A stretch of DNA of 32,190 nucleotides from a bacterium (lineage in GTDB: Bacteria > Patescibacteriota > Minisyncoccia > Phycocordibacterales > Zambryskibacteraceae): the NCBI GenBank assembly GCA_030674415.1, contig JAUSGP010000005.1, forward strand, positions 1 through 32,190, read 5' to 3'. The notes below the pieces were generated by a model. The model was not told where the DNA came from. It searched no databases and worked only from the letters and a program-made list of their open reading frames with translations. Shown here piece by piece: positions 884 to 14,171 of the stretch. Each line of letters opens with the position of its first letter. Within the stretch, counting starts at the first letter, position 1. The position numbers and the translations under genes are program-made.

Positions 884-1624
884 ATGTTTGAAAAATACCT
901 CAAAGACATAGGCTTGAGTGATAAAGAAGCTGCCGTCTATTTAGCACTTTTATCTTTTGATAAAGCTCTCGTAACTGAAATAGCCGACAAGGCGAATATC
1001 AAGCGGCCTACTACTTATGTAATTCTTGAAAGTCTAGCCAAGAAAGGTCTTGTTAGTGAAGCCAATATTGGCAAGAAAACTTTTTACATTGCCGAGCCAC
1101 CTGAAAAGTTGGGGCTATTTGTCGAGAGACAAATTCATTTACTGGAGGAAAACAAAAAGAGTCTGGACATTATTGTTCCTCAACTTAAAGGAATTCAGAG
1201 GGAACAGGGAGAAAAACCAGTTGTTCAATTTTTTGAAGGTAAAGAAGGGGTAATAAGTTCTAGCCATAACATTTTCTCAAAAAAGATCAACGATGAACCT
1301 GTATATATAGTCTACTCAAAAGATACGGTTATGGACATGTTTTCAGAAAAGGAGGCGAAAGAGATGCGCGAACTGCGTATCTCTAGAGGAATCAAGTCAA
1401 AAGCAATTTACATCTCCAAAGAGGGGGAGAAACCTTCCGATGAAACAGGAGACAGAATAAAAATAGATGAAAACAAATATCCTATAAAAAGTGACATTAC
1501 CATCTATGGTGATCAGGTGAGAGTGGCAGTATTTGGGAAAAGGCTATCAGGTATTTTCGTAAAGAATCAAGAATTAGCAGACACTTTAAAAAGTCTCATT
1601 AAATATATTTTTGATCATAAATAA
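884..1624 (+). CDS. TrmB-family transcriptional regulator (wHTH plus C-terminal effector domain)
   Basis: GLSDKEAAVYLALL...IKRPTTYVILESLAKKGLV wHTH, then P-x-V-x-FFEGKEG. TGnTATAAT at 869-877 lies 6 nt before the ATG (leaderless). Confidence 0.88.
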   Translation: MFEKYLKDIGLSDKEAAVYLALLSFDKALVTEIADKANIKRPTTYVILESLAKKGLVSEANIGKKTFYIAEPPEKLGLFVERQIHLLEENKKSLDIIVPQLKGIQREQGEKPVVQFFEGKEGVISSSHNIFSKKINDEPVYIVYSKDTVMDMFSEKEAKEMRELRISRGIKSKAIYISKEGEKPSDETGDRIKIDENKYPIKSDITIYGDQVRVAVFGKRLSGIFVKNQELADTLKSLIKYIFDHK

Positions 1625-1627
1625 GAA

Positions 1628-1663
1628 GTGCCGTGGCAGAGAAGTGAATCTCTACCACGGCAC
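1628..1663. terminator. Strong hairpin between convergent transcripts
   Basis: gtgccgtggcagaga-agtgaa-tctctaccacggcac, directly after the TrmB-like stop codon. Confidence 0.7.
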
Positions 1664-1845
1664 AGGTCGGATCAGGCTGTAAGGGAGGGAGTTATCCTAC
1701 CCGCAACCTCTGAACATAAGCGTCATGCACTTCTTTCGTTCTGGCGATGGCTGATGCCCCCGCCTGGCTTGTGAAGAGAATCTGACTCTTGCTTCGATCC
1801 TACGTCCTACACTGGTTGGCGGCCGGACGCACTCCGCCTCGAGTT

Positions 1846-1857
1846 CTAGTCGTTCAC
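1846..1857 (-). other. SD-led minigene GTG-AAC-GAC-TAG
   Basis: Minus strand reads ggaggataaagaa GTG AAC GAC TAG. Confidence 0.4.
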
Positions 1858-1940
1858 TTCTTTATCCTCCACGATCTGTGACTAGAGATAAACTGGAGGC
1901 CTCACAGGGGCGTTGACAACACCCCTGCTCCCCAGCCGCC

Positions 1941-1952
1941 CTAGTCGTGCAT
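1941..1952 (-). other. SD-led minigene ATG-CAC-GAC-TAG
   Basis: Minus strand reads aaggagggttct ATG CAC GAC TAG, about 40 nt downstream of the predicted start site of the 2000-2028 promoter. Confidence 0.45.
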
Positions 1953-1999
1953 AGAACCCTCCTTTTCGCCGGTAACACACCGGGTACTCGCTAGCAGGT

Positions 2000-2028
2000 A
2001 GTATATACCCACTAGTTTTAAATGTCAA
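2000..2028 (-). promoter_or_regulatory. sigma70-type promoter (leftward)
   Basis: TTGACA-17 nt-TATACT on the minus strand. Confidence 0.8.
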
Positions 2029-2165
2029 GTTAGAATAACAAAATTAGTTAGTTTAAGTGTCAATTTTTATCTAGTTTAGTCAGACTCAATTAAATTCTAT
2101 ATTGTACAAAATGGCTATATTTCTAGCTATTTTAAATATTGTATAAGATGAAATGTCAAAACTGC

Positions 2166-2194
2166 TTGACAAAATTACTCTTTAGGTATATACT
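2166..2194 (+). promoter_or_regulatory. sigma70-type promoter driving the array
   Basis: TTGACA (2166-2171), 17 nt spacer, TATACT (2189-2194), with an AT-rich upstream region. Confidence 0.85.
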
Positions 2195-2200
2195 CTCTTT

Positions 2201-2775
2201 GTACCTTGAAATCAGCACTGGTTAGCGACGGCAACCGTCTAGAAAATTATCACGGACCCGCAGTCAGACTGGCTTCAAAAGTACGGTTTCTATCCTGCGG
2301 AGGAACTACGTTCCTCCGCTCCAGAGGCTCAAAAGCCTGTGGGGCGGGGGTGGGTAAGGTGGCCTTAATACCGCATAGGGAGTCTTCCCCTTCAGCAAGG
2401 GAAGTATGCGGAACCAGACGCGAGCACAGACTCGCGGAGGGTAAACCAAGATGGGACGAGTTTTGTGCCTGAAGCCCCGTGAAGCTGCACGGTGTGCTAC
2501 GTCCCAGCCCGAACCCACTCCCCGCGATGTTCTTTTACAAAAAGTGGCTAACACCACTAGAGGACTGGAGGCAGAAGCCACCAAGATCCTCGCTCGGGCA
2601 GGTTTCAAGCCCGATGGCCAACGCAAGTCGATTCGCCGGGAAAGTGTGAGAGCAATCTCCACTCCCTGCGGCGGCAAGCCTGGTTATCGGAGGCGATAAC
2701 CGCCGGGTGCGTCATCTTCGGCCAAGGCACCGAAGTTGCTCCAAAATCCAGGAGTGTAAAAGCATGGGTAAGAAT
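2201..2775 (+). ncRNA. Long structured leader / candidate ncRNA
   Basis: No convincing ORF. Many stems, e.g. ccgcag/ctgcgg, ggaggaac/gttcctcc, ccgcata/tatgcgg, cgcgag/ctcgcg. Long-range pairing of 2344-2355 with 2513-2525 is followed by GTTCTTT at 2529. Confidence 0.55.
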
Positions 2776-2863
2776 GGGTGAGCGGTAAAATATCGCTCGC
2801 CCTCCCATCAAAGCTTTCAAACTTTTGAAAATTTTGATGGGAAATGATTCCCAAATGTTCTTT
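2776..2863 (+). repeat. Array element R1 (hairpin + long palindrome + overlapping hairpin + GTTCTTT)
   Basis: gggtgagcg..cgctcgccc / tcccatcaaa..tttgatggga / gggaa..ttccc / gttcttt. Confidence 0.9.
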
Positions 2864-2875
2864 GGAGATAAAAAG

Positions 2876-3067
2876 ATGCTGAAAAAGATCGGTTTGTCTG
2901 TCCTGTCGGCGTTTTTCGCTGGCGGAGCAGTTCTCTGGTTCTGGGTTGCCTATACGCAATCCAATCCAGAGATGGCGAGGGCGGCTTTCATGATCGCTCT
3001 CGGCCCCACCACGGCCGCAATCCTCTTTGCCCACAAGGCGAGATGGATCAACAAACCCAATCGTTGA
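2876..3067 (+). CDS. Small two-TM membrane protein (array ORF)
   Basis: SD ggag then ATG 2876 directly after R1; two hydrophobic segments. Confidence 0.75.
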   Translation: MLKKIGLSVLSAFFAGGAVLWFWVAYTQSNPEMARAAFMIALGPTTAAILFAHKARWINKPNR

Positions 3068-3090
3068 TGATTGGGTTCCCACCAAAACAT

Positions 3091-3299
3091 GTCCAAGTCG
3101 GTGCAGCGGCTCGAGGACAACAACACTTCATTTAGGGACCTGCGAAAAGCACTGTAAGTGCTACACGGGCCCAGAAAGCTTGAAGTGTACGGTCTCAAAA
3201 GATCGAGATCACTGGGTTCGAATACGGGTGGCTTAGTGCTCTTCCGAAGGAGGTGGCCACAGCCCGTTATTCCATAGAACCTGGACTGCAACGTTCTTT
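3091..3299 (+). ncRNA. Pseudoknot module copy A
   Basis: Hairpin gtccaagtcg-GTGCAG-cggctcgaggac; complementary CTGCA at 3286, then GTTCTTT at 3293. Confidence 0.65.
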
Positions 3300-3303
3300 A
3301 AAA

Positions 3304-3381
3304 GCCGAACTTCGGTTCGGCTTCCATCAGAGTTCTGAAAACTTTCAGAGTTGTGATGGGGAATGTTCCCCGCTGTTCTTT
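3304..3381 (+). repeat. Array element R2
   Basis: gccgaac-ttcg-gttcggc / ttccatca..tgatgggg / ggggaa..ttcccc / gttcttt. Confidence 0.9.
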
Positions 3382-3393
3382 TCAGGAGATTAT

Positions 3394-3714
3394 ATGCCCA
3401 ATACGTTTGCCGAACTGGTCGTCCGGATCAACAATTCGGACAACGGGACTCTGTTCCAGCAGATCTGCGCAATGTTCGCGCAGGTCAGCACGATGGACGC
3501 TAACAGCGTTATCGTGTGCTGGCAGGCTCTCGACATGGTGAGGAGTCTGGACTCCCGCCACGGCTGCACCATTGCAGTCGACAAGCTCCAGCGCGCCTTG
3601 ATTGCCAGGATGCAAGTCCTGAGCAATCAAGAGTTTCCCCACGCCGTCCTCTACAACAGGATGACGCTGCGGGAAAAATTCAGATCAGTAATCGGTCCCG
3701 GGAGAGGGCTGTGA
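3394..3714 (+). CDS. Hypothetical protein (array ORF)
   Basis: SD aggag then ATG 3394 after R2 (MPNTFAELVV...); 106 aa, no recognised family. Confidence 0.75.
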   Translation: MPNTFAELVVRINNSDNGTLFQQICAMFAQVSTMDANSVIVCWQALDMVRSLDSRHGCTIAVDKLQRALIARMQVLSNQEFPHAVLYNRMTLREKFRSVIGPGRGL

Positions 3715-3723
3715 TCTGGGCGC

Positions 3724-3829
3724 CGTCAGTCTCATTAGGTAACTGACGTTAAAGGGAGTTAAGCTGCCCGTCCGTCGTGTAGGACAAAGTGCTGATGACC
3801 AAGCGTCTGCCGGAGCGTCATCCCGGTGC
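3724..3829 (+). ncRNA. Repeated structured module (TTAA..GTTAAGCTG..GTGCTRATGA) plus CGT-loop hairpin, copy 1
   Basis: Homologous to 6218-6323 with compensatory stem changes (cgtcag/ctgacg vs cgtgag/ctcacg; gtcc/ggac vs gcct/aggc). Confidence 0.6.
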
Positions 3830-3900
3830 TGATTCGCAAGAATCGGCTTTCTATCAGAGAACTGAAAAATCAGTCTTCTGACGGGAAGCTGAAACTTCCC
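3828..3900 (+). repeat. Array element R3 (not directly followed by GTTCTTT)
   Basis: gctgattc-gcaa-gaatcggc / tttctatcaga..tctgacgggaa / gggaag..cttccc. Confidence 0.75.
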
Positions 3901-3910
3901 AAAACCAGAG

Positions 3911-4125
3911 GTCCAAGCCGGTGCAGCGGCTCAAGGACTGAGAGAGTTCAAGTTCACCTTTTAAATCCCAACTCTCTGGACGCTCAGAATCTGCTTTTGG
4001 ACTCGTGGAGCAATGCTCGCGAAATCCTAGCAGGAGCGCAAGGTGAATGGTGAACGTAAGTTCATCACCGAGGGCGGCGTGCCAAGCATGACTTGTCACT
4101 CTGCTCCGGACTGCACACGTTCTTT
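3911..4125 (+). ncRNA. Pseudoknot module copy B
   Basis: gtccaagccg-GTGCAG-cggctcaaggac; CTGCAC at 4111; GTTCTTT at 4119. Confidence 0.65.
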
Positions 4126-4140
4126 CTATAGGAGGTGAGT

Positions 4141-4146
4141 ATGTAG
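4141..4146 (+). other. Start-stop minigene ATG-TAG behind a perfect SD
   Basis: aggaggtgagt ATG TAG, followed by the hairpin gtgccggc..gccggcac. Confidence 0.45.
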
Positions 4147-4194
4147 ACGCATACGTGTGCCGGCAGGTTGAGAGCGAGCCGGCACTGTCATTCA

Positions 4195-4275
4195 GCCGAA
4201 CTTCGGTTCGGCTTCCATCAAAGTTTTTAAACTCTTGAAAATTTTGATGGGACAATTCCGTCCCGAAAGTTCTTT
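4195..4275 (+). repeat. Array element R4
   Basis: gccgaac-ttcg-gttcggc / ttccatcaaa..tttgatggga / gggac..gtccc / gttcttt. Confidence 0.9.
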
Positions 4276-4287
4276 GAGGAGAGTGCT

Positions 4288-4662
4288 ATGCAGAATATCA
4301 TCGTTGGCGTGTCTATCCCGGACAACTACCAGATCGGCTCCAAAACCGAAGGTCGGCGGATGGCGGTGCACAGTTGGGATCTCACGAAGAGTGAGAGACT
4401 GACCACCGCCACCTACGGCAGCCGGCAGCACTCAACAACTTGGTTCGAGGACTGCGAAGTTCTCGACGCCGAGGGGGAGCTACCCGAAGCCCTGCACATT
4501 CTCGTCCGCTGTGGGCGTGAGTGGAATGGGTCGATCGGCGGGTCGTCGTGGTTCGCCAGTGAAGCTTTTGTCTCACGAGAACGTGCTGAAGAGTACGTCG
4601 CCAAGTGGGAGTCGGAGCTCAGCTGGTACTGGATCGTCACAACAAGGAGGTGTATCGAGTGA
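4288..4662 (+). CDS. Hypothetical protein (array ORF)
   Basis: SD gaggag then ATG after R4; 124 aa, Trp-rich C-terminus. Confidence 0.8.
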   Translation: MQNIIVGVSIPDNYQIGSKTEGRRMAVHSWDLTKSERLTTATYGSRQHSTTWFEDCEVLDAEGELPEALHILVRCGREWNGSIGGSSWFASEAFVSRERAEEYVAKWESELSWYWIVTTRRCIE

Positions 4663-4693
4663 GTATAGCGTCTGCCGGAGCGTAATCCCGGTA

Positions 4694-4742
4694 CTGTTCA
4701 GAGATGCGTATCTCTGCTGATGAGCTCAAAAGAGCGAAACAG
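4694..4742 (+). ncRNA. Hammerhead ribozyme, type III
   Basis: CUG-UU / stem I cagagat-gcgt-atctctg / CUGAUGA / stem II gctc-aaaa-gagc / GAAA / CAG. Complete canonical core; predicted cut after 4698 (GUU triplet). Confidence 0.85.
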
Positions 4743-4761
4743 AAATTCTTTGAAATTTGGG

Positions 4762-4802
4762 TCCCCATTAGATAATTCAATTTTTGAATTATCTAATGGG
4801 GA
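4762..4802. repeat. Perfect 19-bp inverted repeat (isolated long-palindrome variant)
   Basis: tccccattagataattcaa-ttt-ttgaattatctaatgggga. Confidence 0.85.
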
Positions 4803-4906
4803 GATGTCACTACGCGAGGACAGGGAACAACAGAGCTAGCGTGCTAACGCCACGTGAATACTGCCCGCTGAAACTCCGTGATGCATGACTCTTCCCAAGT
4901 AACACG

Positions 4907-5084
4907 GTCCAGGCCGGTGCAGCGGCCAGAGGACTAGTGGATTCGCTCGCCTGGATTGGTGGGCGGATGGCGACGAGTTCTCGTCGCAACCAGGTATAAG
5001 ACCGGGGGTTCAAATCGCTTCTGAAGGAGGTGCCCCGACCGGTGATAGAGTACCTGGACTGCACACGTTTTACTTTTGTTCTTT
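4907..5084 (+). ncRNA. Pseudoknot module copy C
   Basis: gtccaggccg-GTGCAG-cggccagaggac; CTGCAC at 5059; GTTCTTT at 5078. Confidence 0.65.
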
Positions 5085-5103
5085 CAAAAAGGAGATTAGA
5101 GAG

Positions 5104-5355
5104 ATGATGATCGGCCTTTCGAACTCGGAAGCCAGGGCTCGTTTGGTTGAGGGTGTGGTGTCCGACGATCGTCGCGACATCATCGGGCCGAACGGCCTGA
5201 AGTACAAGGTCAAGAACTACCTTGTACCCACCCTCATCCCAGGAGAGAAGGTGCGGTTCATTCCGCATCAGCGCTCCTGGAAGAGTCAGACCTATGCCGG
5301 CGAGGTCTGGCTGCAAAACGAGCGCCATCGCCGGCGCAAACCCGATCCTTCGTGA
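5104..5355 (+). CDS. Small hypothetical protein, possibly OB-fold/cold-shock-like (array ORF)
   Basis: SD aaggag after GTTCTTT 5078. The V.G.V...L.PGEKVRF pattern loosely recalls small OB folds. Confidence 0.65.
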   Translation: MMIGLSNSEARARLVEGVVSDDRRDIIGPNGLKYKVKNYLVPTLIPGEKVRFIPHQRSWKSQTYAGEVWLQNERHRRRKPDPS

Positions 5356-5422
5356 TCGGGTTCCCATCAAAGTTTTCAAATCATTGAAGATTTTGATGGG
5401 AAATGATTCCCAAATGTTCTTT
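5340..5422 (+). repeat. Array element R5
   Basis: acccgatc..gatcgggt (overlaps the upstream stop codon) / tcccatcaaa..tttgatggga / gggaa..ttccc / gttcttt. The 3' part is nearly identical to R1. Confidence 0.9.
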
Positions 5423-5440
5423 ACAACAGGAGAAGAGATA

Positions 5441-6205
5441 ATGAGAATTCTGGTAATTGACGACAACCCTCTTCATCATGCAAGTGCTCGGCAGACGCTC
5501 GGTGGCCACGAGGTCACGATCGTCGGCACGTACGACGAGGCGCACAAGCTCCTTGAGGAGCCGAGAGCGCACTGGAAAGCCGTGAATGATGAACTGGAAC
5601 GCCGCGGCTTCAAGAACCCATACGCGCCGAACATGACCGCGGAAGAGCGGGCGGCGGCGCGGGCCGAAGAGAAGCGCATTGAGCAGGAGCTCTGTCCGCC
5701 TCCGCCGTTCGAAGCCGTTCTCTCTGACTTGCTCATGCCAGCAAGCAGGATGACCATGGGTCCGGAAGGAGAGAAGTACATCGGGCAGGAAATGCCGGTG
5801 GGCTTCGCTCTCTCGCTCATGGCGGCTCTTCACGCGAAGTACGTGGCGGTCGTGACGGCAACCAACCATCACAACCATCCGGCCTCCGCCATGCTCGACG
5901 CCTTTGAGTCGAGATGCACCCACGAGCACGATTCGGTAGGCAAGCCCCCTCGTTTTGTCATCAACGGAGCGCGTGTCGGTTTCTACCACGCGCCGATGAC
6001 ATTCGTGGAGGGTACCACCTGTCCGGATTGCGGCGGCAGCGGCGACAAGGAGGTCTGCTACTGCGTCGAGCGCAACGCCGGCGTGGCCAAGCCTGATTGC
6101 GACACCTGCAAAGGTGCCGGCCGTCAGTGTTGGACTTGCCGCAATACCGGCAAGCAGTGGGGCAAGGACTGGGGCAAGGTCCTAACTCATATCACTGCTG
6201 GATAG
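5441..6205 (+). CDS. Receiver-like domain protein with C-terminal CxxCxGxG zinc-finger repeats
   Basis: MRILVIDD start and LSDLLMP phospho-acceptor-like motif; CPDCGGSG, CDTCKGAG, CWTCRNTG. SD aggag then ATG 5441. Confidence 0.8.
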   Translation: MRILVIDDNPLHHASARQTLGGHEVTIVGTYDEAHKLLEEPRAHWKAVNDELERRGFKNPYAPNMTAEERAAARAEEKRIEQELCPPPPFEAVLSDLLMPASRMTMGPEGEKYIGQEMPVGFALSLMAALHAKYVAVVTATNHHNHPASAMLDAFESRCTHEHDSVGKPPRFVINGARVGFYHAPMTFVEGTTCPDCGGSGDKEVCYCVERNAGVAKPDCDTCKGAGRQCWTCRNTGKQWGKDWGKVLTHITAG

Positions 6206-6217
6206 CGGTGATAGCCC

Positions 6218-6323
6218 CGTGAGGCTTATCAGATAACTCACGTTAATGAGCGTTAAGCTGCTCGCCTGTTGTGTAAGGCAAAGTGCTAATGATCTGACGT
6301 CCGCCGGAGCGTCATCCCGGTAC
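6218..6323 (+). ncRNA. Repeated structured module plus CGT-loop hairpin, copy 2
   Basis: Homologous to 3724-3829; followed by GTTCTTT at 6325. Confidence 0.6.
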
Positions 6324-6333
6324 TGTTCTTTCC

Positions 6334-6412
6334 GCCGAACCTCGGTTCGGCTCCTACCAGAGTTCTGAAAAACTTCAGAATTGTGGTGGGACAATCCCGT
6401 CCCCTGTTCTTT
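6334..6412 (+). repeat. Array element R6
   Basis: gccgaac-ctcg-gttcggc / tcctacca..tggtggga / gggac..gtccc / gttcttt. Confidence 0.9.
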
Positions 6413-6421
6413 GAGGAAAAA

Positions 6422-6559
6422 ATGAAGAAGAAAATTCTTCGACTGCCTCGCGCACCACTACCGCGCCAGACTGGTGGATACCACAGTCCGGACAAGGGTC
6501 GCGGTGCCTACAACCGCCAGCATGAAAAACTGGCCACCAAAAAGGAGACGCAGGAATGA
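6422..6559 (+). CDS. 45-aa basic peptide resembling alternative ribosome-rescue factor ArfA
   Basis: Manual translation: MKKKILRLPRAPLPRQTGGYHSPDKGRGAYNRQHEKLATKKETQE. SD gagg; PLxRQ...KGxGxYxR pattern. Below the ORF-track size cut-off. Confidence 0.6.
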   Translation: MKKKILRLPRAPLPRQTGGYHSPDKGRGAYNRQHEKLATKKETQE

Positions 6560-6768
6560 TGATGAAAACGATCCCGCAGCAGGTTCAGCGTCCTCGCGTT
6601 CACCAGCCACTGTTTCTGAAACAGAAGCTCGTCTGCTCGATGTGCAAGGTTAGGGAAGTGATCCCGCCGATTGCCGTCTGCTCGCCCTGCTTACAAATCC
6701 TCAACCAGAGGCGCAAGGAAGCAGAGAAGAGTGGGCGTCCGTGGTGGCGGCGATGGTTCTGGGGCTAA
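6556..6768 (+). CDS. Small zinc-binding protein (CxxC...CxxC) with PWWRRWF tail
   Basis: ATGA overlap with the upstream peptide; SD aaggag; CSMC and CSPC. Confidence 0.7.
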   Translation: MMMKTIPQQVQRPRVHQPLFLKQKLVCSMCKVREVIPPIAVCSPCLQILNQRRKEAEKSGRPWWRRWFWG

Positions 6769-6802
6769 ATCACCCAGCGTCTTCCGGAGCGTCATCCCGG
6801 TA

Positions 6803-6851
6803 CTGTTCAGAGATGCGTATCTCTGCTGACGAAGTCGAAAGACAGAAACAG
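6803..6851 (+). ncRNA. Hammerhead ribozyme, type III (variant stem II)
   Basis: Stem III/I identical to the 4694 copy; CUGACGA; a-gtc-gaaa-gac-a (A.A mismatch at the base of stem II); GAAA-CAG. Confidence 0.7.
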
Positions 6852-6870
6852 ATGTTCTTTAAAAAAAATC

Positions 6871-7130
6871 TGCCTGCTTCCCAGAAAGTTCCTGAAATAT
6901 ATTCGGTACTTTTCTGGGGCGCAGGTATGGACAGATACCTTGGACGCCCGGGAAGCCTCCCACCCAATAACCACCTTAAGTCTGACGAGACAAGAGGAGA
7001 ATGGTTATTTGGTTAAAAATCGACCTTGACTTCGCGCTGGTCGATTAGGCCGCTCTTTGCAGGGATCGGAATAGGCATTCCTAAAGGTCTCGGATGATGC
7101 AACATTTGAGACCACTGTCCACCGTTCTTT
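6871..7130 (+). ncRNA. Long palindrome plus multi-stem non-coding domain
   Basis: tgcctgc..cccagaaa/tttctggg..gcaggta at 6871-6927. tggacag (6928) pairs with ctgtcca (7115), enclosing several hairpins, then GTTCTTT at 7124. Confidence 0.5.
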
Positions 7131-7132
7131 TT

Positions 7133-7214
7133 GCCGAACTCATGTTCGGCTTCCGTAAAAGTTTTTAAATCATTGAAAATTTTTACGGGACAATTTGGTC
7201 CCAACCTGTTCATT
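7133..7214 (+). repeat. Array element R7
   Basis: gccgaac-tcat-gttcggc / ttccgtaaaa..ttttacggga / gggac..gtccc / gttcatt variant. Confidence 0.88.
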
Positions 7215-7239
7215 TCATCATCAGAAGGATGGCTTGGCT

Positions 7240-7599
7240 ATGGAAAAGAAGTTTGTTCTCTCTATTGTCGAATCCGAGAATACGAAGTATGGGTATAACC
7301 CATGTGAGTGCTCGGATTGCACCCACTGGAGTATCAACTTCGAGCCCTCGGCAGACGAGGCGGCGGTGAAGGAGCTTTGCGATTTCGTCAATCGAGTATC
7401 TCACTCGAAAGGCAAAATCAAGGAGCTTGGGGAGAAGGAGTGCAAATTCCTGTCGGCCCTTTTGGGAATCAACATCACAGGAGGTCTTCCTTATGTTGAA
7501 GCTAGATACTGGGAATACCAGGAACCTAGACCCGAACCGCCACCATCATCTGTTTCCGAGGCATTCCGGAGGTTGCACAATCTTAAGCGGGGATCCTAG
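7240..7599 (+). CDS. Hypothetical protein with CxCxxC motif (array ORF)
   Basis: ATG 7240 after R7; PCECSDC. Confidence 0.75.
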   Translation: MEKKFVLSIVESENTKYGYNPCECSDCTHWSINFEPSADEAAVKELCDFVNRVSHSKGKIKELGEKECKFLSALLGINITGGLPYVEARYWEYQEPRPEPPPSSVSEAFRRLHNLKRGS

Positions 7600-7635
7600 T
7601 GAATCCATAAGCTAGGGCGAGACCGCAGTGCATAT

Positions 7636-7725
7636 GGGTGAGCGGCAAAATATCGCTCGCCCTCCCATCAGAGTTTTTCAAAAATTGGAAAGTTCTGATG
7701 GGACAATAGTGTCCCTGTGTTCTTT
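7636..7725 (+). repeat. Array element R8
   Basis: First hairpin nearly identical to R1 / tcccatcaga..tctgatggga / gggaca..tgtccc / gttcttt. Confidence 0.9.
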
Positions 7726-7746
7726 CACAGCCTAAGGAGTGCGTCC

Positions 7747-8199
7747 ATGAAAAGCGTTGAAAAAGAGTTACCAGAAGTCTACGGGATCATCTCCCGCGAC
7801 CACGCCCAAAACGGCAAGAACAGCGCTGTCTCCAAGTACGTGAACGGCGGGTGTACCTCGGATTCAGCAGAGCCAGTACTGGCACTCGTGATGCCCTATT
7901 TCGAGAGCTACGAGATGTCCAGGCTCCTCGCTCTGTATGATGCGGTCTGGAGCGCTCATCAAGTCGGTCTGTTGCACCACATCAATTTCAGCAACAGGAA
8001 GATCAGAGAGGAGGCGCGCAAGTACGGCATCTCTGATGATCGGGTGTGGCCAGCGAAGCTCGTGGACATCGAGGAAATCAGCGTGGGCGACCCGGAGGAT
8101 ATCGGGTCTGCCATTGCGGAGATCCTCAGTGTCCTCATGAAAATGAGAGACATGGAGAGCTTCCTCGAGACTCGCGCCGATCAACTTCTGAGTTCTTAG
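7747..8199 (+). CDS. Hypothetical protein (array ORF)
   Basis: SD taaggag then ATG 7747 (MKSVEKELPE...); 150 aa. Confidence 0.8.
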   Translation: MKSVEKELPEVYGIISRDHAQNGKNSAVSKYVNGGCTSDSAEPVLALVMPYFESYEMSRLLALYDAVWSAHQVGLLHHINFSNRKIREEARKYGISDDRVWPAKLVDIEEISVGDPEDIGSAIAEILSVLMKMRDMESFLETRADQLLSS

Positions 8200-8236
8200 G
8201 AATAAAATACGTCCACTGGCGCGTAAGCCCAGTATC

Positions 8237-8329
8237 GTCCGAGGAAGTCATATATCCTCGGACTTCCTTCAGAGAATTTAACTTCGGTTGAATGTTCTGA
8301 AGGAACGAATGGTTCGTTCCATGTTCTTT
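8237..8329 (+). repeat. Array element R9
   Basis: gtccgagga..tcctcggac / ttccttcaga..tctgaaggaa / ggaacgaa..ttcgttcc / gttcttt. Confidence 0.88.
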
Positions 8330-8343
8330 GAGGAGATAAAAAG

Positions 8344-8733
8344 ATGGAAACAGAAAAGGATTTGTTCGAGCTTGAAATGGAGGAGAAGCGGAAGCAGGAA
8401 CCTCCGATCTCATCCGATAACCCCGCACCCTTCAAACAGCCGTTTCTGGTCATTACGTTCAAAGATCAGAAAATCCACGGCAACGTTGCCGACGGCTGGC
8501 ACGTCGAAGTCGACGGTCAGATTCAGAAGTACTTCGAAGAATTCACGGAGCGCACTCTCGAATGGGCTCCGCCGTTCAATTCAATGCACCGCGCGACGCC
8601 GCTTCTGAGGAGCATCGTCGAGTACTTCGCGAGCCGTGGCATGGAGGTCGCGAGTGTGGCCACGTACGCCGGATCGGCTGGCCCATCACATGTACTGAGG
8701 AACGGGGCGTTCTTCAAGCGCATGAGGTTCTAA
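8344..8733 (+). CDS. Hypothetical protein (array ORF)
   Basis: SD gaggag then ATG; 129 aa. Confidence 0.8.
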   Translation: METEKDLFELEMEEKRKQEPPISSDNPAPFKQPFLVITFKDQKIHGNVADGWHVEVDGQIQKYFEEFTERTLEWAPPFNSMHRATPLLRSIVEYFASRGMEVASVATYAGSAGPSHVLRNGAFFKRMRF

Positions 8734-8754
8734 CGTTCATTAAAAGGAGGTAAT

Positions 8755-8853
8755 ATGCCACCGGATTCAAAAGGGATAGCTGAGCGGCCCGATTCAAGAC
8801 TCAGCCCTAGATCTTCGAGGTTTAGAGAGGTAACGGTACGTGCCTTCACGTGA
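8755..8853 (+). CDS. 32-aa peptide (array ORF)
   Basis: gttcatt, then SD aaggagg, then ATG: MPPDSKGIAERPDSRLSPRSSRFREVTVRAFT. Confidence 0.45.
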   Translation: MPPDSKGIAERPDSRLSPRSSRFREVTVRAFT

Positions 8854-8864
8854 TCCGACCTAAT

Positions 8865-8959
8865 GGGGAAGAACCAAAACTTGGCCAACCTTCCCCTTTC
8901 ATCTAAGGTTTTAGAAAATTGAAATTTTAGATGAGAGAATAGTTCTCTCAATGTTCTTT
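8865..8959 (+). repeat. Array element R10 (most divergent copy)
   Basis: ggggaag..cttcccc / ctttcatctaa..ttagatgagag / tgagagaa..ttctctca / gttcttt. Confidence 0.8.
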
Positions 8960-8974
8960 GAGAAAAGAGGTGTC

Positions 8975-9298
8975 ATGTATCGAAGGATCGAACCTCCAGG
9001 CAGCTCGGCTATGACTCTTGGTTGCGAGGCAATGTGTCAGTCTGGTCTTCCGGATCCCCGCGGTTGGGTTCAAGGCACTCGACCAGTCGAATATTTCTTC
9101 ACCGAATACGGCTGGCGCAAAAGCGGTCATGCAGTTCTGAGCGAAATTCGCTCAAAGGGTGTTATCGCCAAAGTGATCGCAGTGAAGGAAAGGGACCCTC
9201 GTATCCATGTTCGCTACCAGGACAAGTGGCAAGTGATTGTCACCTGGGGATGTCGAAAGGAACATAACTCCAAACGAAGGGTATCAACCCAAAACTAG
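8975..9298 (+). CDS. Hypothetical protein (array ORF)
   Basis: SD gaggtg then ATG 8975 (MYRRIEPP...FFTEYGWRK...). Confidence 0.75.
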   Translation: MYRRIEPPGSSAMTLGCEAMCQSGLPDPRGWVQGTRPVEYFFTEYGWRKSGHAVLSEIRSKGVIAKVIAVKERDPRIHVRYQDKWQVIVTWGCRKEHNSKRRVSTQN

Positions 9299-9307
9299 GA
9301 GTGAGAA

Positions 9308-9508
9308 ATGTTCTTCGATAACCATGAAATTTTGGTCCAGGGTTCCACGCTTGTAGGTATTCAGAATGTAACCTTGCTTTGCAAGATTCACGACGAGCTC
9401 GAGCTCCTAATCATCGACACCCAAGCAATAGTGCCCGGCAAGATCGTTCGTTTAAGATGTCCGTATTGCAGAATGCTTGGCTACCTGATCACTAGCAAAG
9501 CTGAGTAA
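9308..9508 (+). CDS. Small putative zinc-ribbon protein
   Basis: SD aggag; CKIH...CPYC. Confidence 0.6.
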   Translation: MFFDNHEILVQGSTLVGIQNVTLLCKIHDELELLIIDTQAIVPGKIVRLRCPYCRMLGYLITSKAE

Positions 9509-9518
9509 TAACTTGATC

Positions 9519-9598
9519 GGGCAAACTATGTTTGCCCTTCCGTCAGAGAGCTGAAAGATTTCAGAATTCTGACGGGACAATTCCGTCCCGTGTTCTTT
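9519..9598 (+). repeat. Array element R11
   Basis: gggcaaac-tat-gtttgccc / ttccgtcaga..tctgacggga / gggac..gtccc / gttcttt. Confidence 0.9.
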
Positions 9599-9619
9599 GA
9601 GTGAAGAGGAAGTGAAAGA

Positions 9620-9883
9620 ATGGAACAGCATCTGTCGGTTGCTCAAGCCGCAAGCGAAGTAATCCAACACGCCTGCGAGAATTTCTCTACCACGAGCCGA
9701 CAAGACGAACTTTGTGGAGAGATCCTCGCCGCTCTCACGATTGCGGCCAGGGTAGACATCCAGGCAAGGGAGCGCCACGCCTTTGTCTCTAGATGGCAAT
9801 CGCTTCTTCCGGAAGTCCTTCGTGCCAACGGAAGAGCGGTTTTTGCAGTCATCGTGGAGCAGAAGCTAGAAGAACTCCTTTAA
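9620..9883 (+). CDS. Hypothetical protein (array ORF)
   Basis: SD gagga then ATG after R11; 87 aa, predicted helical. Confidence 0.75.
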   Translation: MEQHLSVAQAASEVIQHACENFSTTSRQDELCGEILAALTIAARVDIQARERHAFVSRWQSLLPEVLRANGRAVFAVIVEQKLEELL

Positions 9884-9912
9884 ACAAACGTTCATCGGCA
9901 CGTAAGCCCGGT

Positions 9913-10001
9913 TCCGAGGAAACCATAAATCCTCGGGTTTCCTTAAAAGATTTTCTAACAGGAAATTTTTTAAGGGGACAATTCCGTCCCAACTGTTCTT
10001 T
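9913..10001 (+). repeat. Array element R12
   Basis: tccgagga..tcctcggg (like R9) / tttccttaaaa..ttttaagggga / gggac..gtccc / gttcttt. Confidence 0.88.
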
Positions 10002-10013
10002 GAGGAAAATACG

Positions 10014-10358
10014 ATGAGAATGATTCTGTGTCTTTGTTTTCTGTCCGTTGCTCTCGTCGCGGCGCAAGAACCGGCGCAACAACCGGTATTCCCCGCACTG
10101 ACCGAGCCGGCTTACGTCGGCGTCGGCCAGGTTGATCTCAAGAAGATTTCCTTGAGGTCGGCACGCGACTTGGGCATCATCCGGGCGCAGGGAGCGCTCG
10201 CACGCGCAATCTGCGACCCGAACAACGAGAAGGAGCGCGTCCGCGCTTTCATCGTTGGCAAGCGTCATACCGACGAACTTCGAGTCGGTGACGTGCTCTG
10301 GGTCCGTATCTGGATCCGGAAGGACGAGGTCGAGGTGGACAAAGTCTGCCTCGACTGA
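10014..10358 (+). CDS. Secreted hypothetical protein (signal peptide)
   Basis: MRMILCLCFLSVALVAA-QEP signal peptide; SD gagga. Confidence 0.75.
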   Translation: MRMILCLCFLSVALVAAQEPAQQPVFPALTEPAYVGVGQVDLKKISLRSARDLGIIRAQGALARAICDPNNEKERVRAFIVGKRHTDELRVGDVLWVRIWIRKDEVEVDKVCLD

Positions 10359-10388
10359 AACGGAAACGAATTCATTTTTGGAGGGTGT

Positions 10389-10676
10389 ATGCAACAGAGT
10401 GTGCTCGGCGAACTCATCACGCTCATTTTGGTCATCGTGATCATGCTCGGAGGCATGACAATGATCGTGGGCGGCCCGTCTCTTACGGGACGGTGGTACC
10501 GGTGGATCTTCCGAACTGTAGTACTCGCTCCCCTCGGTTGGGGGCTGCGCCAGATCGGCAGAGGCGTCGAGTGGCTCCTACGATGGAGCGCCCGACAACT
10601 CGGACGACTCCTACTCTATCTCGCTCGACTCACGGGCAGAGGTATCCACTACGCCTGGGTCAGGTTAACCACCTGA
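10389..10676 (+). CDS. Small membrane protein
   Basis: SD gaggg; N-terminal TM segment, then an Arg/Trp amphipathic tail. Confidence 0.7.
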   Translation: MQQSVLGELITLILVIVIMLGGMTMIVGGPSLTGRWYRWIFRTVVLAPLGWGLRQIGRGVEWLLRWSARQLGRLLLYLARLTGRGIHYAWVRLTT

Positions 10677-10738
10677 CCCAGTTTTGTCATATTCTAAGCC
10701 ATATTTTGATAAATTAGAGGTAAAAATAGACAATATAC

Positions 10739-10767
10739 TTGACAATATTTCAAGTATATGATAGGAT
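10739..10767 (+). promoter_or_regulatory. sigma70-type promoter
   Basis: TTGACA-17 nt-TAGGAT with extended TG, 8 nt before ATG 10776. Confidence 0.6.
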
Positions 10768-10775
10768 AGTAATAG

Positions 10776-10976
10776 ATGCAGGCGTTTATCGTCGGCACCA
10801 GGACGGTCGTCAGCAACTTCGTTGACGGCACCCGAATCGTGGAGCAGAGGTTTCGGGAAACCGAAGCGGATGCTCTTGCTCACGCTCTGTGGCTCGAAAG
10901 CCACGGCAAGCGTGAGGAAGCTGTGGAATATCTGGACGACTACCTCCAGAGACACCCAGCCCCGACTCGCCACTAA
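10776..10976 (+). CDS. Small hypothetical protein
   Basis: 66-aa ORF directly behind its own promoter (probably leaderless). Confidence 0.6.
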   Translation: MQAFIVGTRTVVSNFVDGTRIVEQRFRETEADALAHALWLESHGKREEAVEYLDDYLQRHPAPTRH

Positions 10977-11047
10977 GGTGGGGGTGCAATGGGGATGTCA
11001 TCGCAGTCCCTGTAAATAAAATGCGTGCCCTTAGCCGGGTCACAAGC

Positions 11048-11110
11048 AAGGCCATTCTTAACCGAACGGCCTTTTTGTTTTACAACAAACCCGCCAATTG
11101 GCGGGTTTGT
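11048..11110. terminator. Two terminator hairpins between convergent units
   Basis: aaggcc..ggccttttt (11048-11076) and acaaacccgcc-aatt-ggcgggtttgt (11085-11110). Confidence 0.75.
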
Positions 11111-11134
11111 GTTTCTTAATTAACTAGAAGGATT

Positions 11135-11392
11135 TTAAGAAGCGTTCATTTCGGCATCGAGATTTTCGAGCTCGGTAGAGTTGAGATCAGCTTCGATGTC
11201 AGCGGTAGTATCAGATTCGCTCTGGATGTTGATGGTATCGAGTTCATTGTTTAGTGCCTGACTCTCACTACGCTGTCCCCAGAAGTAGAGTGCTCCGAAG
11301 ATCACAACAGCGAGAATGACGATAGCGCCGATGATGGGGCCGGCGGAGGAGCCAGACTGAACTGCTGCATTGACGTTGCTTTGTTCGTCCAT
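11135..11392 (-). CDS. Single-TM hypothetical protein
   Basis: GPIIGAIVILAVVIFGALYFWG TM segment with an acidic tail. Confidence 0.8.
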   Translation of the reverse strand: MDEQSNVNAAVQSGSSAGPIIGAIVILAVVIFGALYFWGQRSESQALNNELDTINIQSESDTTADIEADLNSTELENLDAEMNAS

Positions 11393-12826: not shown

Positions 12827-13987
12827 TTAATTTTCTTCTGGAGCTGGAACCTCGGCAGTAGCAAGTTCTTCTCCACGCGCAGACTGAATGTCGATCTTCC
12901 AGCCGGTAAGCTTGGCCGCCAGACGCACGTTCTGTCCGCCCTTGCCGATTGCGAGAGACTGCTGATCTTCAGCAACAATCACGGATGCAGCTTTTTCTTC
13001 TTCGTTTATTTTAATGTCCAAAACCTTAGCCGGGGAGAGAGCTTCTTCAATAAACTTCTTCGGCTCGGCTGACCATTCGATGATGTCAATCTTCTCACCG
13101 CGGAGCTCACTCATGACAGTAGATACACGTACCCCACGCTGGCCGACCAGAGCGCCGATTGGGTCGATATGAGTGTCTACGGCTTGTGCGGCAATCTTGG
13201 AGCGGTAACCCGCTTCTCGGGCAATAGCCTTGATAACTATTGCGCCACTCGCCAGTTCCGGGGCTTCCGCTTCGAAGAGCTTCTCAAGAAACTTCGGATG
13301 AGAGCGGGAAAGTCTGAGGAAGACTCCGCGCGGAGACTCTTCCACTCTATAGAGATAAGCGCGCACGCGTTCGCCTTGGCTGAAGCGCTCACTCGGTATC
13401 TGCTCCTCGTAGGCTAGAAGACCCGTAGCCCGACCCATGTCTACGAAGATATTGCCGCGCTCTATCCTCTGGACGGTGCCGTTCACTATCTCGCCTTCAC
13501 GCTTACCGAATTCGGACACGACAGAAGTTTTCTCCGCCTCACGAATCTTCTGCATGATCACTTGCTTAGCCGTTTGTGCGGCGATGCGACCATACTCACC
13601 CTTAGACTCAATAGGGAAAATAATTTCTTCATCGATCTGGGCGTCCTTCTTAATCTTACGCGCATCTTCAAGGAGGATATGATGCTCCGGATTGTAGACA
13701 ACTCTTTCATCTGCTGAAACAACCGCTTCGTCAACTTCACTTTCTGGAGTTTCTTCGTCTTCAAATATAACGCGTGATTCATCCACCACAATTTTCACCT
13801 GGAAGAAATTAGTTTCCCCAGTCGACAGGTCGAAGGAGGTACGGATAATCTGACCCTTCTTGCCGTACTCCTTCTTATAAGCGGTAGCGAGAGCGGCTTC
13901 AATGGCTTCGATGATCGAGGCCCGCGGAATACCGCGGGCTTCTTCAAGCTCGCTTAGGACTGAATTGATGACTTTGAGATCAAACAT
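12827..13987 (-). CDS. nusA: Transcription termination/antitermination factor NusA
   Basis: GRIAAQTAKQVI, S1 domain, AREAGYRSK, VGQRG, AIGKGGQNVRLA. Start taken at ATG 13987. Confidence 0.97.
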   Translation of the reverse strand: MFDLKVINSVLSELEEARGIPRASIIEAIEAALATAYKKEYGKKGQIIRTSFDLSTGETNFFQVKIVVDESRVIFEDEETPESEVDEAVVSADERVVYNPEHHILLEDARKIKKDAQIDEEIIFPIESKGEYGRIAAQTAKQVIMQKIREAEKTSVVSEFGKREGEIVNGTVQRIERGNIFVDMGRATGLLAYEEQIPSERFSQGERVRAYLYRVEESPRGVFLRLSRSHPKFLEKLFEAEAPELASGAIVIKAIAREAGYRSKIAAQAVDTHIDPIGALVGQRGVRVSTVMSELRGEKIDIIEWSAEPKKFIEEALSPAKVLDIKINEEEKAASVIVAEDQQSLAIGKGGQNVRLAAKLTGWKIDIQSARGEELATAEVPAPEEN

Positions 13988-14171
13988 GTTGGTTTTGGTT
14001 ACGAAATGGGTTCGCCTCACGGCGAACCCACCTCAAGCAAACTTATTACTTATTTACTCTACCAAATGCCTTTAGGGTTTGTCAACTCCCTACGGTCGTT
14101 AGCTTCAGGTTCACTCGGACTCTAAAAACAAAGCGCCGAAGCGAAAGCTGAGGCGGTCTTTCATTTTGTAT

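Follow-up and report, generated by a model that had tools for sequence, protein, structure and literature searches.

Why should one heptamer, GTTCTTT, occur 17 times on the same strand within some 8 kb of a bacterial genome, each time just downstream of a folded RNA element? The question is raised by a stretch of 32,190 nucleotides (nt) from a groundwater member of the Zambryskibacteraceae (Patescibacteriota), contig JAUSGP010000005.1 of assembly GCA_030674415.1, hereafter the window, which is contig C36 of an assembly (G000) of 484,927 bases in 36 contigs that is rated 80% complete. Its + strand carries one predicted transcription unit of ~8.5 kb, the array, running from a promoter at 2166-2194 to a terminator at 10655-10681 and holding ~17 open reading frames (ORFs) of 32-254 amino acids, most of them with a Shine-Dalgarno (SD) sequence, among noncoding modules of several kinds that include two hammerhead ribozymes. 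The original prediction had likened the heptamer to BoxA, the element that loads antitermination factors on ribosomal RNA operons, and had proposed that it either allows repeated reloading of such a complex along a long, partly untranslated RNA or marks a cut/join site. Judged from its sequence and its setting, the heptamer is a candidate BoxA-type element, carried by the nascent transcript of a single long operon in which each module has GUUCUUU placed 1-5 nt past its last helix. That these elements are NusB/S10 loading sites, renewed after every RNA-processing module, is a reading to which we give roughly even credence.

The window has 19 exact copies of the heptamer, 17 of them on the + strand (at 2529, 2857, 3293, 3375, 4119, 4269, 5078, 5416, 6325, 6406, 6854, 7124, 7719, 8323, 8953, 9592 and 9995) and two on the - strand (19709 and 28754), so that the list of + strand copies first drawn up was both accurate and complete. 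In dinucleotide shuffles of the window the mean is 6.82 copies (sd 2.94, maximum 15), and none of 100 shuffles reached 19; the reverse complement is absent from the array. A count over the rest of the assembly, array excluded, gives 97 copies on both strands together, which is ordinary when set beside the counts (38-198) of the 41 remaining permutations of its letters, and the local enrichment on a single strand is ~20-fold. None of these 97 copies has a module around it and just four are placed as in a 5' untranslated region (UTR), again an ordinary share among the 42 permutations, which rules out a general 5' UTR element; the few single cases that combine a promoter, GTTCTTTGA and an SD include one on contig C30. 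Within the array, one-mismatch variants are found at 4745 (ATTCTTT) and at 7208 and 8735 (both GTTCATT), and TGTACCTTGAAA lies at 2200-2211, 6 nt past the -10 hexamer of the promoter, all as previously described. The variant at 8735-8741 follows a stop codon and has no stem.

The setting of the exact copies is equally regular. All 17 lie outside the SD-led ORFs and 1-5 nt 3' of a helix strand, whichever module type precedes them, which bears out two further claims of the original prediction. The preceding element is the P2 hairpin of module A in ten cases, the end of module B in three, and a hammerhead, module C, the closing helix of the leader and an unnamed noncoding module in one case each. 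Downstream, an SD and a start codon follow within 30 nt in 12 cases and another noncoding module in the remaining five, and the three ORFs that lie directly behind another ORF (6556, 9308 and 10389) have no heptamer; the element thus belongs to the modules and not to translation starts.

The case for a BoxA comes from the rRNA leaders of the same genome. The 16S leader (contig C2) consists of a TATACT promoter, CACGTCTTAACTA, a hairpin CCTGTCgttaaGACGGG, a single t and GTTCTTTGAAAATTGAATAAG; it therefore reads as a hairpin followed by GTTCTTTGAAAATTGAAT at the BoxA position, from which the core of the rrn BoxA in this organism would be GTTCTTT, the exact heptamer of the array, placed after a small hairpin just as in module A. 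The 23S leader has GAACCTTAACAACTGAATA, also after a hairpin. Written out as RNA, array-type sites read GUUCUUUGAGGA and GUUCUUUGAGGAGA, to be compared with GUUCUUUGAAAAUUGAAU in the rrn leader. The corresponding position in the leaders of 20 further genomes of the genus is occupied by G[T/A/C][T/A/C]C[T/A]TT[N]A[A/C]AA, including GTTCTTT, GATCTTT, GCTCTTT, GTTCATT and GTCCTTT. When a 9-mer weight matrix derived solely from these 20 relatives is run over the assembly, 48 sites reach 12 bits or more, and 11 of them fall in the array, i.e. in 0.9% of the searched sequence, where ~0.4 would be expected; with a 12-mer matrix the best match in the assembly is its own rrn leader, and the start-site word GUACCUUGAAAU scores 12.9 bits with the rrn-leader matrix. 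In addition, the one-mismatch forms seen at verified module ends in relatives (GTTCATT, GATCTTT, GCTCTTT, GTTCTCT and ATTCTTT) are the same as the variants tolerated in the rrn BoxAs of the genus. The arrangement has a precedent in B. subtilis, whose rrn leaders, as described in a 2026 report, have a small hairpin followed by a boxA-like AUGAUCUUUGAAA, compared with UGCUCUUUAACA in E. coli, with NusB binding shown by nuclear magnetic resonance (PMC13753749).

Of the factors that a BoxA would call for, the host has genes for nusB (C27:2972-3361), nusG and nusA; RNase III (C27:2005-2385) is present as well. The genes of RNase III and NusB lie ~600 nt apart on the same (-) strand of contig C27. 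As for nusA (12827-14020), whose nearness to the array had been offered as a possible coincidence, it is most likely just that, being on the - strand with two genes between.

Hammerheads provide a test of the association outside the array. Both copies in the window (4693-4743 and 6802-6852) have the CUGAUGA ... GAAA cores and are, by sequence, type III hammerheads for which self-cleavage is predicted. In an alignment of 50 rows, one of them on the wrong strand, compensatory changes are seen in six of the seven pairs of stem I and in all three of stem II, while stem III has just four pairs, which are invariant. This short stem III accounts for the low score of the Rfam Hammerhead_3 model on 4698-4745 (24.5 bits, E 0.12, below the gathering score of 48.5); the second copy has no entry in the Rfam matches. 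The cleavage nucleotide in 151 copies is C in 114, U in 21, A in 16 and never G. Among the 15 hammerheads in loci of the genus, eight are followed by the exact heptamer, six by GTTCATT, GATCTTT, GCTCTTT or ATTCTTT, and one by neither. An unbiased scan for the same subtype, in which each prokaryote species was represented by a single genome and the heptamer formed no part of the pattern, returned at least 149 sites in at least 141 loci, all in bacterial metagenome-assembled genomes (MAGs) and mostly in Patescibacteria. Among the sites listed, GTTCTTT lies within 18 nt 3' of the hammerhead in 48 of 149 and the loose form G[TAC][TAC]C[TA]TT in 74 of 149, compared with 1, 1 and 3 exact and 4, 1 and 4 loose occurrences in control windows of the same size. 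A reverse-complement control (34/149) is not valid, because AAAGTTC often stands before the motif and its reverse complement, GAACTTT, is itself a loose match. Among these same sites the distance between ribozyme and heptamer varies from 1 to 10 nt, the flanks are otherwise unrelated in distant Patescibacteria, and 51-54 of the 74 loose-form sites have A at positions 9-11 after the core, position 8 being free. When the 80 loci listed are sorted by MAG title, the exact form is found at 31/68 sites in MAGs of Patescibacteria type, 1/9 in those of other named phyla and 1/6 in those entitled simply 'bacterium'.

The same pattern finds 130 sites in viral contigs, 123 of them with a CUGUH cut site and often located just before an SD and ATG, and of these none is followed by the exact heptamer and one by the loose form. 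This rules out the idea that the heptamer is a piece of the ribozyme itself; it is an added element that accompanies this ribozyme in this bacterial lineage only.

That the modules are selected as RNA is indicated by their structures. Module A consists of a long helix (P1) followed by a small hairpin (P2), and its covariance model matches 33 times across the window and four related genomes, with no match in the loci of other families. P1 has 14 pairs, 11 of them with compensatory change, as well as a G-U pair that is invariant in 32/32 distinct rows, and P2 has five pairs, three with compensatory change; paired cells amount to 95.9%, versus 81.0% in shuffled alignments and no more than 66.5% with slid partners, figures drawn from a model-fitted alignment, which leans towards the model's own structure. 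RNAalifold, run independently on the 11 copies in the window, gives 18 pairs, 12 with compensatory change. Because a G-U pair is a C-A mismatch on the other strand, its invariance points to selection on the + strand RNA. A four-pair extension of P1 (UUCC with GGGA) can form in almost all of the 32 distinct copies and competes with P2 for the same GGGA. The 33 copies, which come from five genomes of the genus, end in the exact heptamer in 28 cases, in a one-mismatch form in three and in neither in two.

In module B (3076-3299, 3896-4125 and 4892-5084), the loop of the 5' hairpin, GUGCAG, is complementary to a CUGCAC located 2-3 nt before the heptamer, a complementarity seen by eye in 6/6 copies from the window and two relatives with the bases invariant; this layout recalls that of pseudoknotted self-cleaving ribozymes. 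Module C ends in a terminal hairpin, e.g. GCCGG-AGCGUCAUC-CCGGU, whose stem covaries (CCGG/CUGG/UCGG) and whose loop GCGU(C/A)A(U/G)C is conserved. It occurs at 3805-3831, 4669-4697, 6300-6325, 6778-6806, 8210-8240 and 9893-9915. Throughout the genus it also immediately precedes the cut site of each hammerhead, a position from which it would become the 3' end of the upstream product. In the leader, a long-range helix (GGGGGUGGGU with ACCCACUCCC) closes 5 nt ahead of the heptamer at 2529-2535, and an alignment of four genomes predicts 54 pairs, 14 with compensatory change; such an RNA could act as a sensor or scaffold for the whole operon. None of this corresponds to a catalogued RNA: at gathering scores Rfam has no match in the whole window, at E values up to 10 over 1500-11200 there are only the weak hammerhead match and terminator look-alikes, and scans for tRNA and tmRNA found none.

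These features can be assembled into a scheme in which the modules appear to be cistron separators. The operon would be transcribed as one RNA and cut between cistrons. The hammerheads would cut at CUGUU/C (CUGUH/), so that the upstream mRNA would end 3' in the preceding hairpin and the downstream RNA would begin with the ribozyme, bearing a 5'-OH, and the heptamer. The P1 helix of module A, 18 base pairs (bp) long with its extension, is a plausible RNase III substrate. Cleavage would release GGGA from P1, and P2 could then fold and cap the 5' end of the downstream RNA, which would explain why both competing helices are retained. Right after each module a new BoxA would emerge and bind NusB-S10, as the identical copy in the 16S leader presumably does. 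In the rrnTAC model, NusB keeps hold of boxA as the nascent RNA loops out (PMC10250234). A cut within such a loop would sever the tether of the polymerase to the previous BoxA, and a fresh BoxA for each cut or buried tether would allow the Nus-modified polymerase to be re-established or handed over, in parallel with the leader and spacer BoxAs of rrn operons. The polymerase would then stay modified and the finished mRNA could be released. The presence of hammerheads in the array thus gives the 'reloading' of the original prediction a concrete reason.

Several observations weigh against this reading. Across the genus the commonest rrn form is GTACTTT, and the array does not co-vary with the rrn BoxA of its own genome: in the relative G016, the rrn form is GCTCTTT while the array has GTTCTTT 14 times on its own strand and never on the other, and in G021 the rrn form is GTACTTT while the fetched locus has seven GTTCTTT on the array strand (six in the array proper) and three GTTCATT. 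Co-variation, it is true, would be predicted only for a site that evolves in place under narrow tolerance. The emphasis of conservation is also opposite. Of 28 16S leaders examined from across the order, 18 read G-N-N-C-W-U-U-G-A-M-A-A, with positions 2-3 free and UUGAMAA fixed, whereas in the array GUUC is fixed and positions 8-12 vary; before ORFs the SD takes the place of the 3' half (GAAAA, GACAA or AACAA in rrn BoxAs). At the start of the leader, the conserved part is the 5' end GUAC...UCAG, the BoxA-like middle being retained in two of four genomes. A loose terminator scan flags P2 plus heptamer ~11 times, the fitted alignment of module A favours its own model as already mentioned, and, since modules are 75-96% identical between genomes, the strict conservation of the heptamer could partly reflect common descent of recently spread modules. 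Finally, of the three genes for which a check had been proposed, nusB is present, suhB was not found in G000 (80% complete), and the RNA-binding domain of Rho is absent from G000 and found in 1/37 genomes of the genus and in 0/22 of those of high quality. With rho not found in G000 or in 36/37 genus genomes, classical anti-Rho antitermination is not the rationale, and in a lineage apparently devoid of Rho the gain would have to lie in suppressed pausing or intrinsic termination at hairpins, in faster elongation or in RNA chaperoning. The idea of a reloaded antitermination complex is thus strengthened by the identity with the rrn BoxA, the presence of nusB, the local nature of the motif and the hammerheads, and weakened by the apparent lack of Rho, the missing co-variation, the differing conservation and a start element kept in just two of four genomes.

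Some of these difficulties would disappear if the heptamer were the site of another conserved host factor, either an RNA-binding protein or an endoribonuclease like RNase Y, E or J, that trims remnants of the ribozyme or hairpin or sets the 5' ends of the downstream RNAs, the rrn copy being then a pre-rRNA processing site. This is unlikely, if still to be taken seriously. The motif always lies beside a helix in a short A/U-rich stretch that is probably single-stranded, the rrn leader in which it occurs also houses processing sites, its 5' half is stricter than in the rrn BoxAs of the order, and the failure to track the rrn variant would be natural. Difficult to reconcile with it are the reach of the match, which extends to the E. 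coli and B. subtilis BoxA consensus and to the anatomy of a hairpin followed by BoxA, and the coincidence of module-end variants with rrn BoxA variants; moreover, to our knowledge no RNase has so long and exact a site.

It seems improbable that P2 and GUUCUUU form a weak intrinsic terminator or attenuator, with the extended P1 as anti-terminator, leaky stops of this kind grading expression along the operon. Such a model draws on the loose scan mentioned above, on the 25 terminator-like sites that the region contains versus 10.7 +/- 3.1 in shuffles, and on the competition of the P1 extension (four pairs) with P2 (five pairs) for GGGA in nearly all of the 32 distinct copies. It does not fit the heptamers that follow hammerheads, module B, module C or the leader, where no local hairpin lies directly upstream; in all, 7/17 heptamers are without one. 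Even in module A, P2 has 5-7 pairs and is separated by two to five non-U bases from an interrupted U tract, whereas the true terminators of this genome have stems of 11-15 bp and longer U tracts, and the copy in the rrn leader is left unexplained.

A function in DNA, as a junction or crossover core of mobile cassettes in an integron-like or repeat-mediated process, is distinctly improbable, and with it the 'join site' of the original prediction finds little support. Cassettes do differ: four genomes of the genus have long homologous arrays with the same promoter and leader at the same locus and different, shuffled cassettes, and the homology of modules between genomes often stops 0-8 nt from the end of the heptamer. 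In G016 (L014, array 3744-5375 of the reverse complement), there is an exact 816-bp tandem duplication of three modules and two ORFs whose junction falls in GAAACAGAAGTTCTTT. The first cassette of the same array has its homologue outside the array of the window, with a promoter of its own (ORF at 10776-10976), from which it follows that cassettes move in and out. However, homologous recombination between repeated modules would produce the same homology ends, there is no recombinase or integrase among the ORFs in or beside the array, the invariant G-U and the strand-specific structure imply selection on RNA, and the motif is also found in the rrn leader. Integron cores have the consensus GTTRRRY. 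GTTCTTT is unlike it and no inverse core (AAAGAAC) lies upstream of the hairpins, so that, with no integrase either, an integron cassette array is ruled out.

The heptamer might also have no function of its own and be carried along as the 3' end of recently spread modules, its likeness to BoxA being due to chance. The identity of modules between genomes (75-96%) and the absence of tracking of the rrn variant would both be in accord with this. We consider it very improbable, because the modules that end in the heptamer are of at least five unrelated types (A, B, C, hammerhead and leader), and because it also follows hammerheads in many distant Patescibacteria with unrelated flanks and offsets of 1-10 nt and is absent after the same ribozyme in viral contigs; by estimate, a chance match to the core of the host rrn BoxA would occur once in 10^3-10^4. 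Least credible is a role ahead of the SD as a standby site or enhancer of translation, as the position of 12/17 copies 1-20 nt before an SD and start codon might suggest, since five copies precede noncoding modules, ORFs with no upstream module have no heptamer, 5' UTRs elsewhere are not enriched (4/97) and the rrn leader that carries it is untranslated.

Returning to renewed BoxA-type loading sites, one may tentatively go further, to a view that we hold with clearly less assurance than the loading sites themselves. In Rho-less Patescibacteria, hammerheads and other modules (a hairpin of RNase III type and possibly new ribozyme classes in B and C) would punctuate hypervariable operons of small genes into single stable mRNAs, each cut being coupled to a fresh BoxA that hands over the Nus-modified polymerase. 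This would amount to a self-renewing antitermination or chaperone system and to a physiological role for hammerheads. BoxA, bacterial hammerheads and intergenic processing are each known already; in open papers and preprints, no account was found of a BoxA-like site at every module of a protein-coding operon, of a coupling of hammerheads to BoxA in Patescibacteria-type genomes, or of this array architecture.

The proposed element is best appreciated by comparison with known systems. It shares with rrn BoxA the core class, being identical to the copy in the 16S leader of the same genome, the placement on sense-strand RNA after a small hairpin, and a structured, poorly translated transcript. It differs in number, with 17 copies in an 8.5-kb protein-coding operon versus one or two (rrn operons carry a second BoxA after the first RNase III processing site), in being tied to ribozyme or hairpin modules, in the apparent loss of the 3' half GAAAA/GACAA, in a lineage that seems to be without Rho, and in that binding at the array is predicted. 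Outside rrn, BoxA is reportedly found upstream of CRISPR arrays and in mRNA leaders such as that of suhB, where it likewise keeps polymerase going through long untranslated or structured RNA; there it is a single leader copy directed against Rho, while here it is present at every module in a genus with rho in 1/37 genomes. The nut sites of phage lambda also combine a hairpin with BoxA on nascent RNA and are present more than once per genome, but boxA precedes boxB in nut and the order is reversed in the array, no N-like protein was identified and the copy number of the array is far higher. The intergenic hammerheads of phages and prophages, of which the 130 viral sites of the same subtype are examples, are likewise cleaved structures between cistrons, yet they do without the heptamer (0/130 exact, 1/130 loose). 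The early genes of phage T7, separated by RNase III sites between cistrons, can also be likened to the array with its modules. Integron arrays resemble it in their single promoter, their variable small promoterless ORFs, their conserved locus and a junction motif that starts with GTT after a folded element; unlike them, the array has no integrase, no GTTRRRY and no imperfect palindrome of the attC type, and its invariant G-U bespeaks selection at the RNA level. In synthetic insulators of the RiboJ type, a hammerhead and a hairpin placed before a gene give a defined 5' end independent of context; the array is natural and has a BoxA-like element added. Its combination of ribozyme, end-protecting hairpins, BoxA and SD resembles the insulated multi-gene designs that synthetic biology has built by hand.

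The role of hammerheads in bacteria is largely unknown, and an operon in which they alternate with genes and with a candidate polymerase-loading signal makes that role directly testable. Should the BoxA reading be true, BoxA and Nus factors would serve beyond rRNA in minimal, Rho-less bacteria, which bears on the retention of these factors in genomes of 0.5 Mb, and it would account for the noncoding share of the array, ~40% (ORF coordinates sum to ~5.1 of 8.5 kb, ~60%), in a genome that is ~84% coding by a crude ORF call. Rfam has no family for several conserved RNAs of the locus: the divergent RNA of ~370 nt, the leader, and modules A, B and C. New ribozymes may be among them. Array parts are not confined to this assembly, being matched in 19/61 related genomes, G000 included (15/37 in the genus and 4/24 in other families). 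The sequencing runs listed for the locus are DNA runs from a single groundwater study, perhaps including its source, and no RNA run is among them.

In the window, the noncoding inventory of the array comprises a leader of ~330 nt, module A 11 times, module B (~220 nt) three times, module C (~110 nt) twice in full with its terminal hairpin elsewhere as well, two type III hammerheads and an unnamed module, and none of the array ORFs has a match among Pfam or PHROG families. The promoter at 2166-2194 (TTGACA, a 17-nt spacer and TATACT) matches 11 of 12 consensus positions and is conserved upstream of the arrays of relatives. The leader (2200-2535), which begins with GUACCUUGAAAU, has the heptamer 2529-2535 at its end and is followed by an ORF of 51 amino acids with a GTG start (2544-2699) that is conserved in the array of a relative. 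The first module A (2800-2875, heptamer 2857-2863, 81.1 bits with covariance model R1) precedes an ORF of 63 amino acids (2876-3067), after which come the first copy of module B (3076-3299, heptamer 3293-3299), with 5' hairpin GGUGCAGCGG and 3' end GGACUGCAAC (repeat family D9), and a module A found by the same model (3319-3393, heptamer 3375-3381) with an ORF of 106 amino acids (3394-3714). A composite noncoding region (3720-4125) consists of module C (3720-3831, family D6), an A-like hairpin and the second module B (3896-4125, family D9) with its heptamer at 4119-4125. At 4119-4147, this heptamer is followed by a strong SD, TATAGGAGGTGAG, and an ATG immediately succeeded by TAG, a start-stop mini-ORF located before a hairpin and the next module A. 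The latter (4210-4287, 89.4 bits, heptamer 4269-4275) leads to an ORF of 124 amino acids (4288-4662).

The first hammerhead, together with the module C hairpin before it, occupies 4667-4751, with a predicted cut at 4698/4699 and the variant ATTCTTT at 4745-4751. Beyond it lie the third module B (4892-5084, family D9, heptamer 5078-5084) with an ORF of 83 amino acids (5104-5355), a module A (5359-5434, heptamer 5416-5422) with the 254-residue ORF (5441-6205), the second full module C (6214-6331, family D6, heptamer 6325-6331), and a module A (6349-6424, heptamer 6406-6412) with two ORFs (6422-6559 and 6556-6768). The second module C hairpin and hammerhead unit (6776-6860, family D7) has a predicted cut at 6807/6808 and the exact heptamer at 6854-6860, no ORF of at least 20 amino acids starting within 70 nt of the latter, and is followed by the unnamed noncoding module (6861-7130, heptamer 7124-7130). 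The remaining modules, all A and all found by the covariance model, are those at 7148-7226 (variant GTTCATT 7208-7214, ORF 7240-7599), 7660-7737 (heptamer 7719-7725, ORF 7747-8199 of 150 amino acids), 8261-8341 (heptamer 8323-8329, ORF 8344-8733 of 129 amino acids), 8894-8971 (P2 GAGAGA/UCUCUC, heptamer 8953-8959, ORFs 8975-9298 and 9308-9508), 9535-9610 (heptamer 9592-9598, ORF 9620-9883) and 9936-10013 (heptamer 9995-10001, ORFs 10014-10358 and 10389-10676). A terminator-like hairpin of 11 bp followed by TTTTGTCATA (10655-10681) is the likely end of the transcript. The array is flanked by genes for ClpP, a TrmB-type regulator, a pyrophosphatase and NusA.

Just past the array, the 66-amino-acid ORF with its own promoter (10739-10976, ORF 10776-10976) is the one whose homologue is the first cassette in G016. 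On the other side, at 1628-2000, the - strand encodes a noncoding RNA of ~370 nt with a divergent TTGACA-17-TATACT promoter (2028-2000) and a 15-bp terminator; it has no Rfam match, adjoins the array in four genomes and has 49 predicted pairs, nine with compensatory change. Elsewhere in the assembly, at ~2182 on the - strand of contig C30, a promoter-like TTGAAA...TAGAAT lies 9 nt ahead of GTTCTTTGAAAG, behind which come an SD and a zinc-ribbon-like ORF; this may be a single-copy BoxA in an mRNA leader. Lastly, 16S and 23S have separate leaders, each with a hairpin and a BoxA-like element, both in G000 (contigs C2, C9 and C13) and in the relative G032, where no 23S follows 16S, and the rRNA genes of the genus appear to be unlinked.

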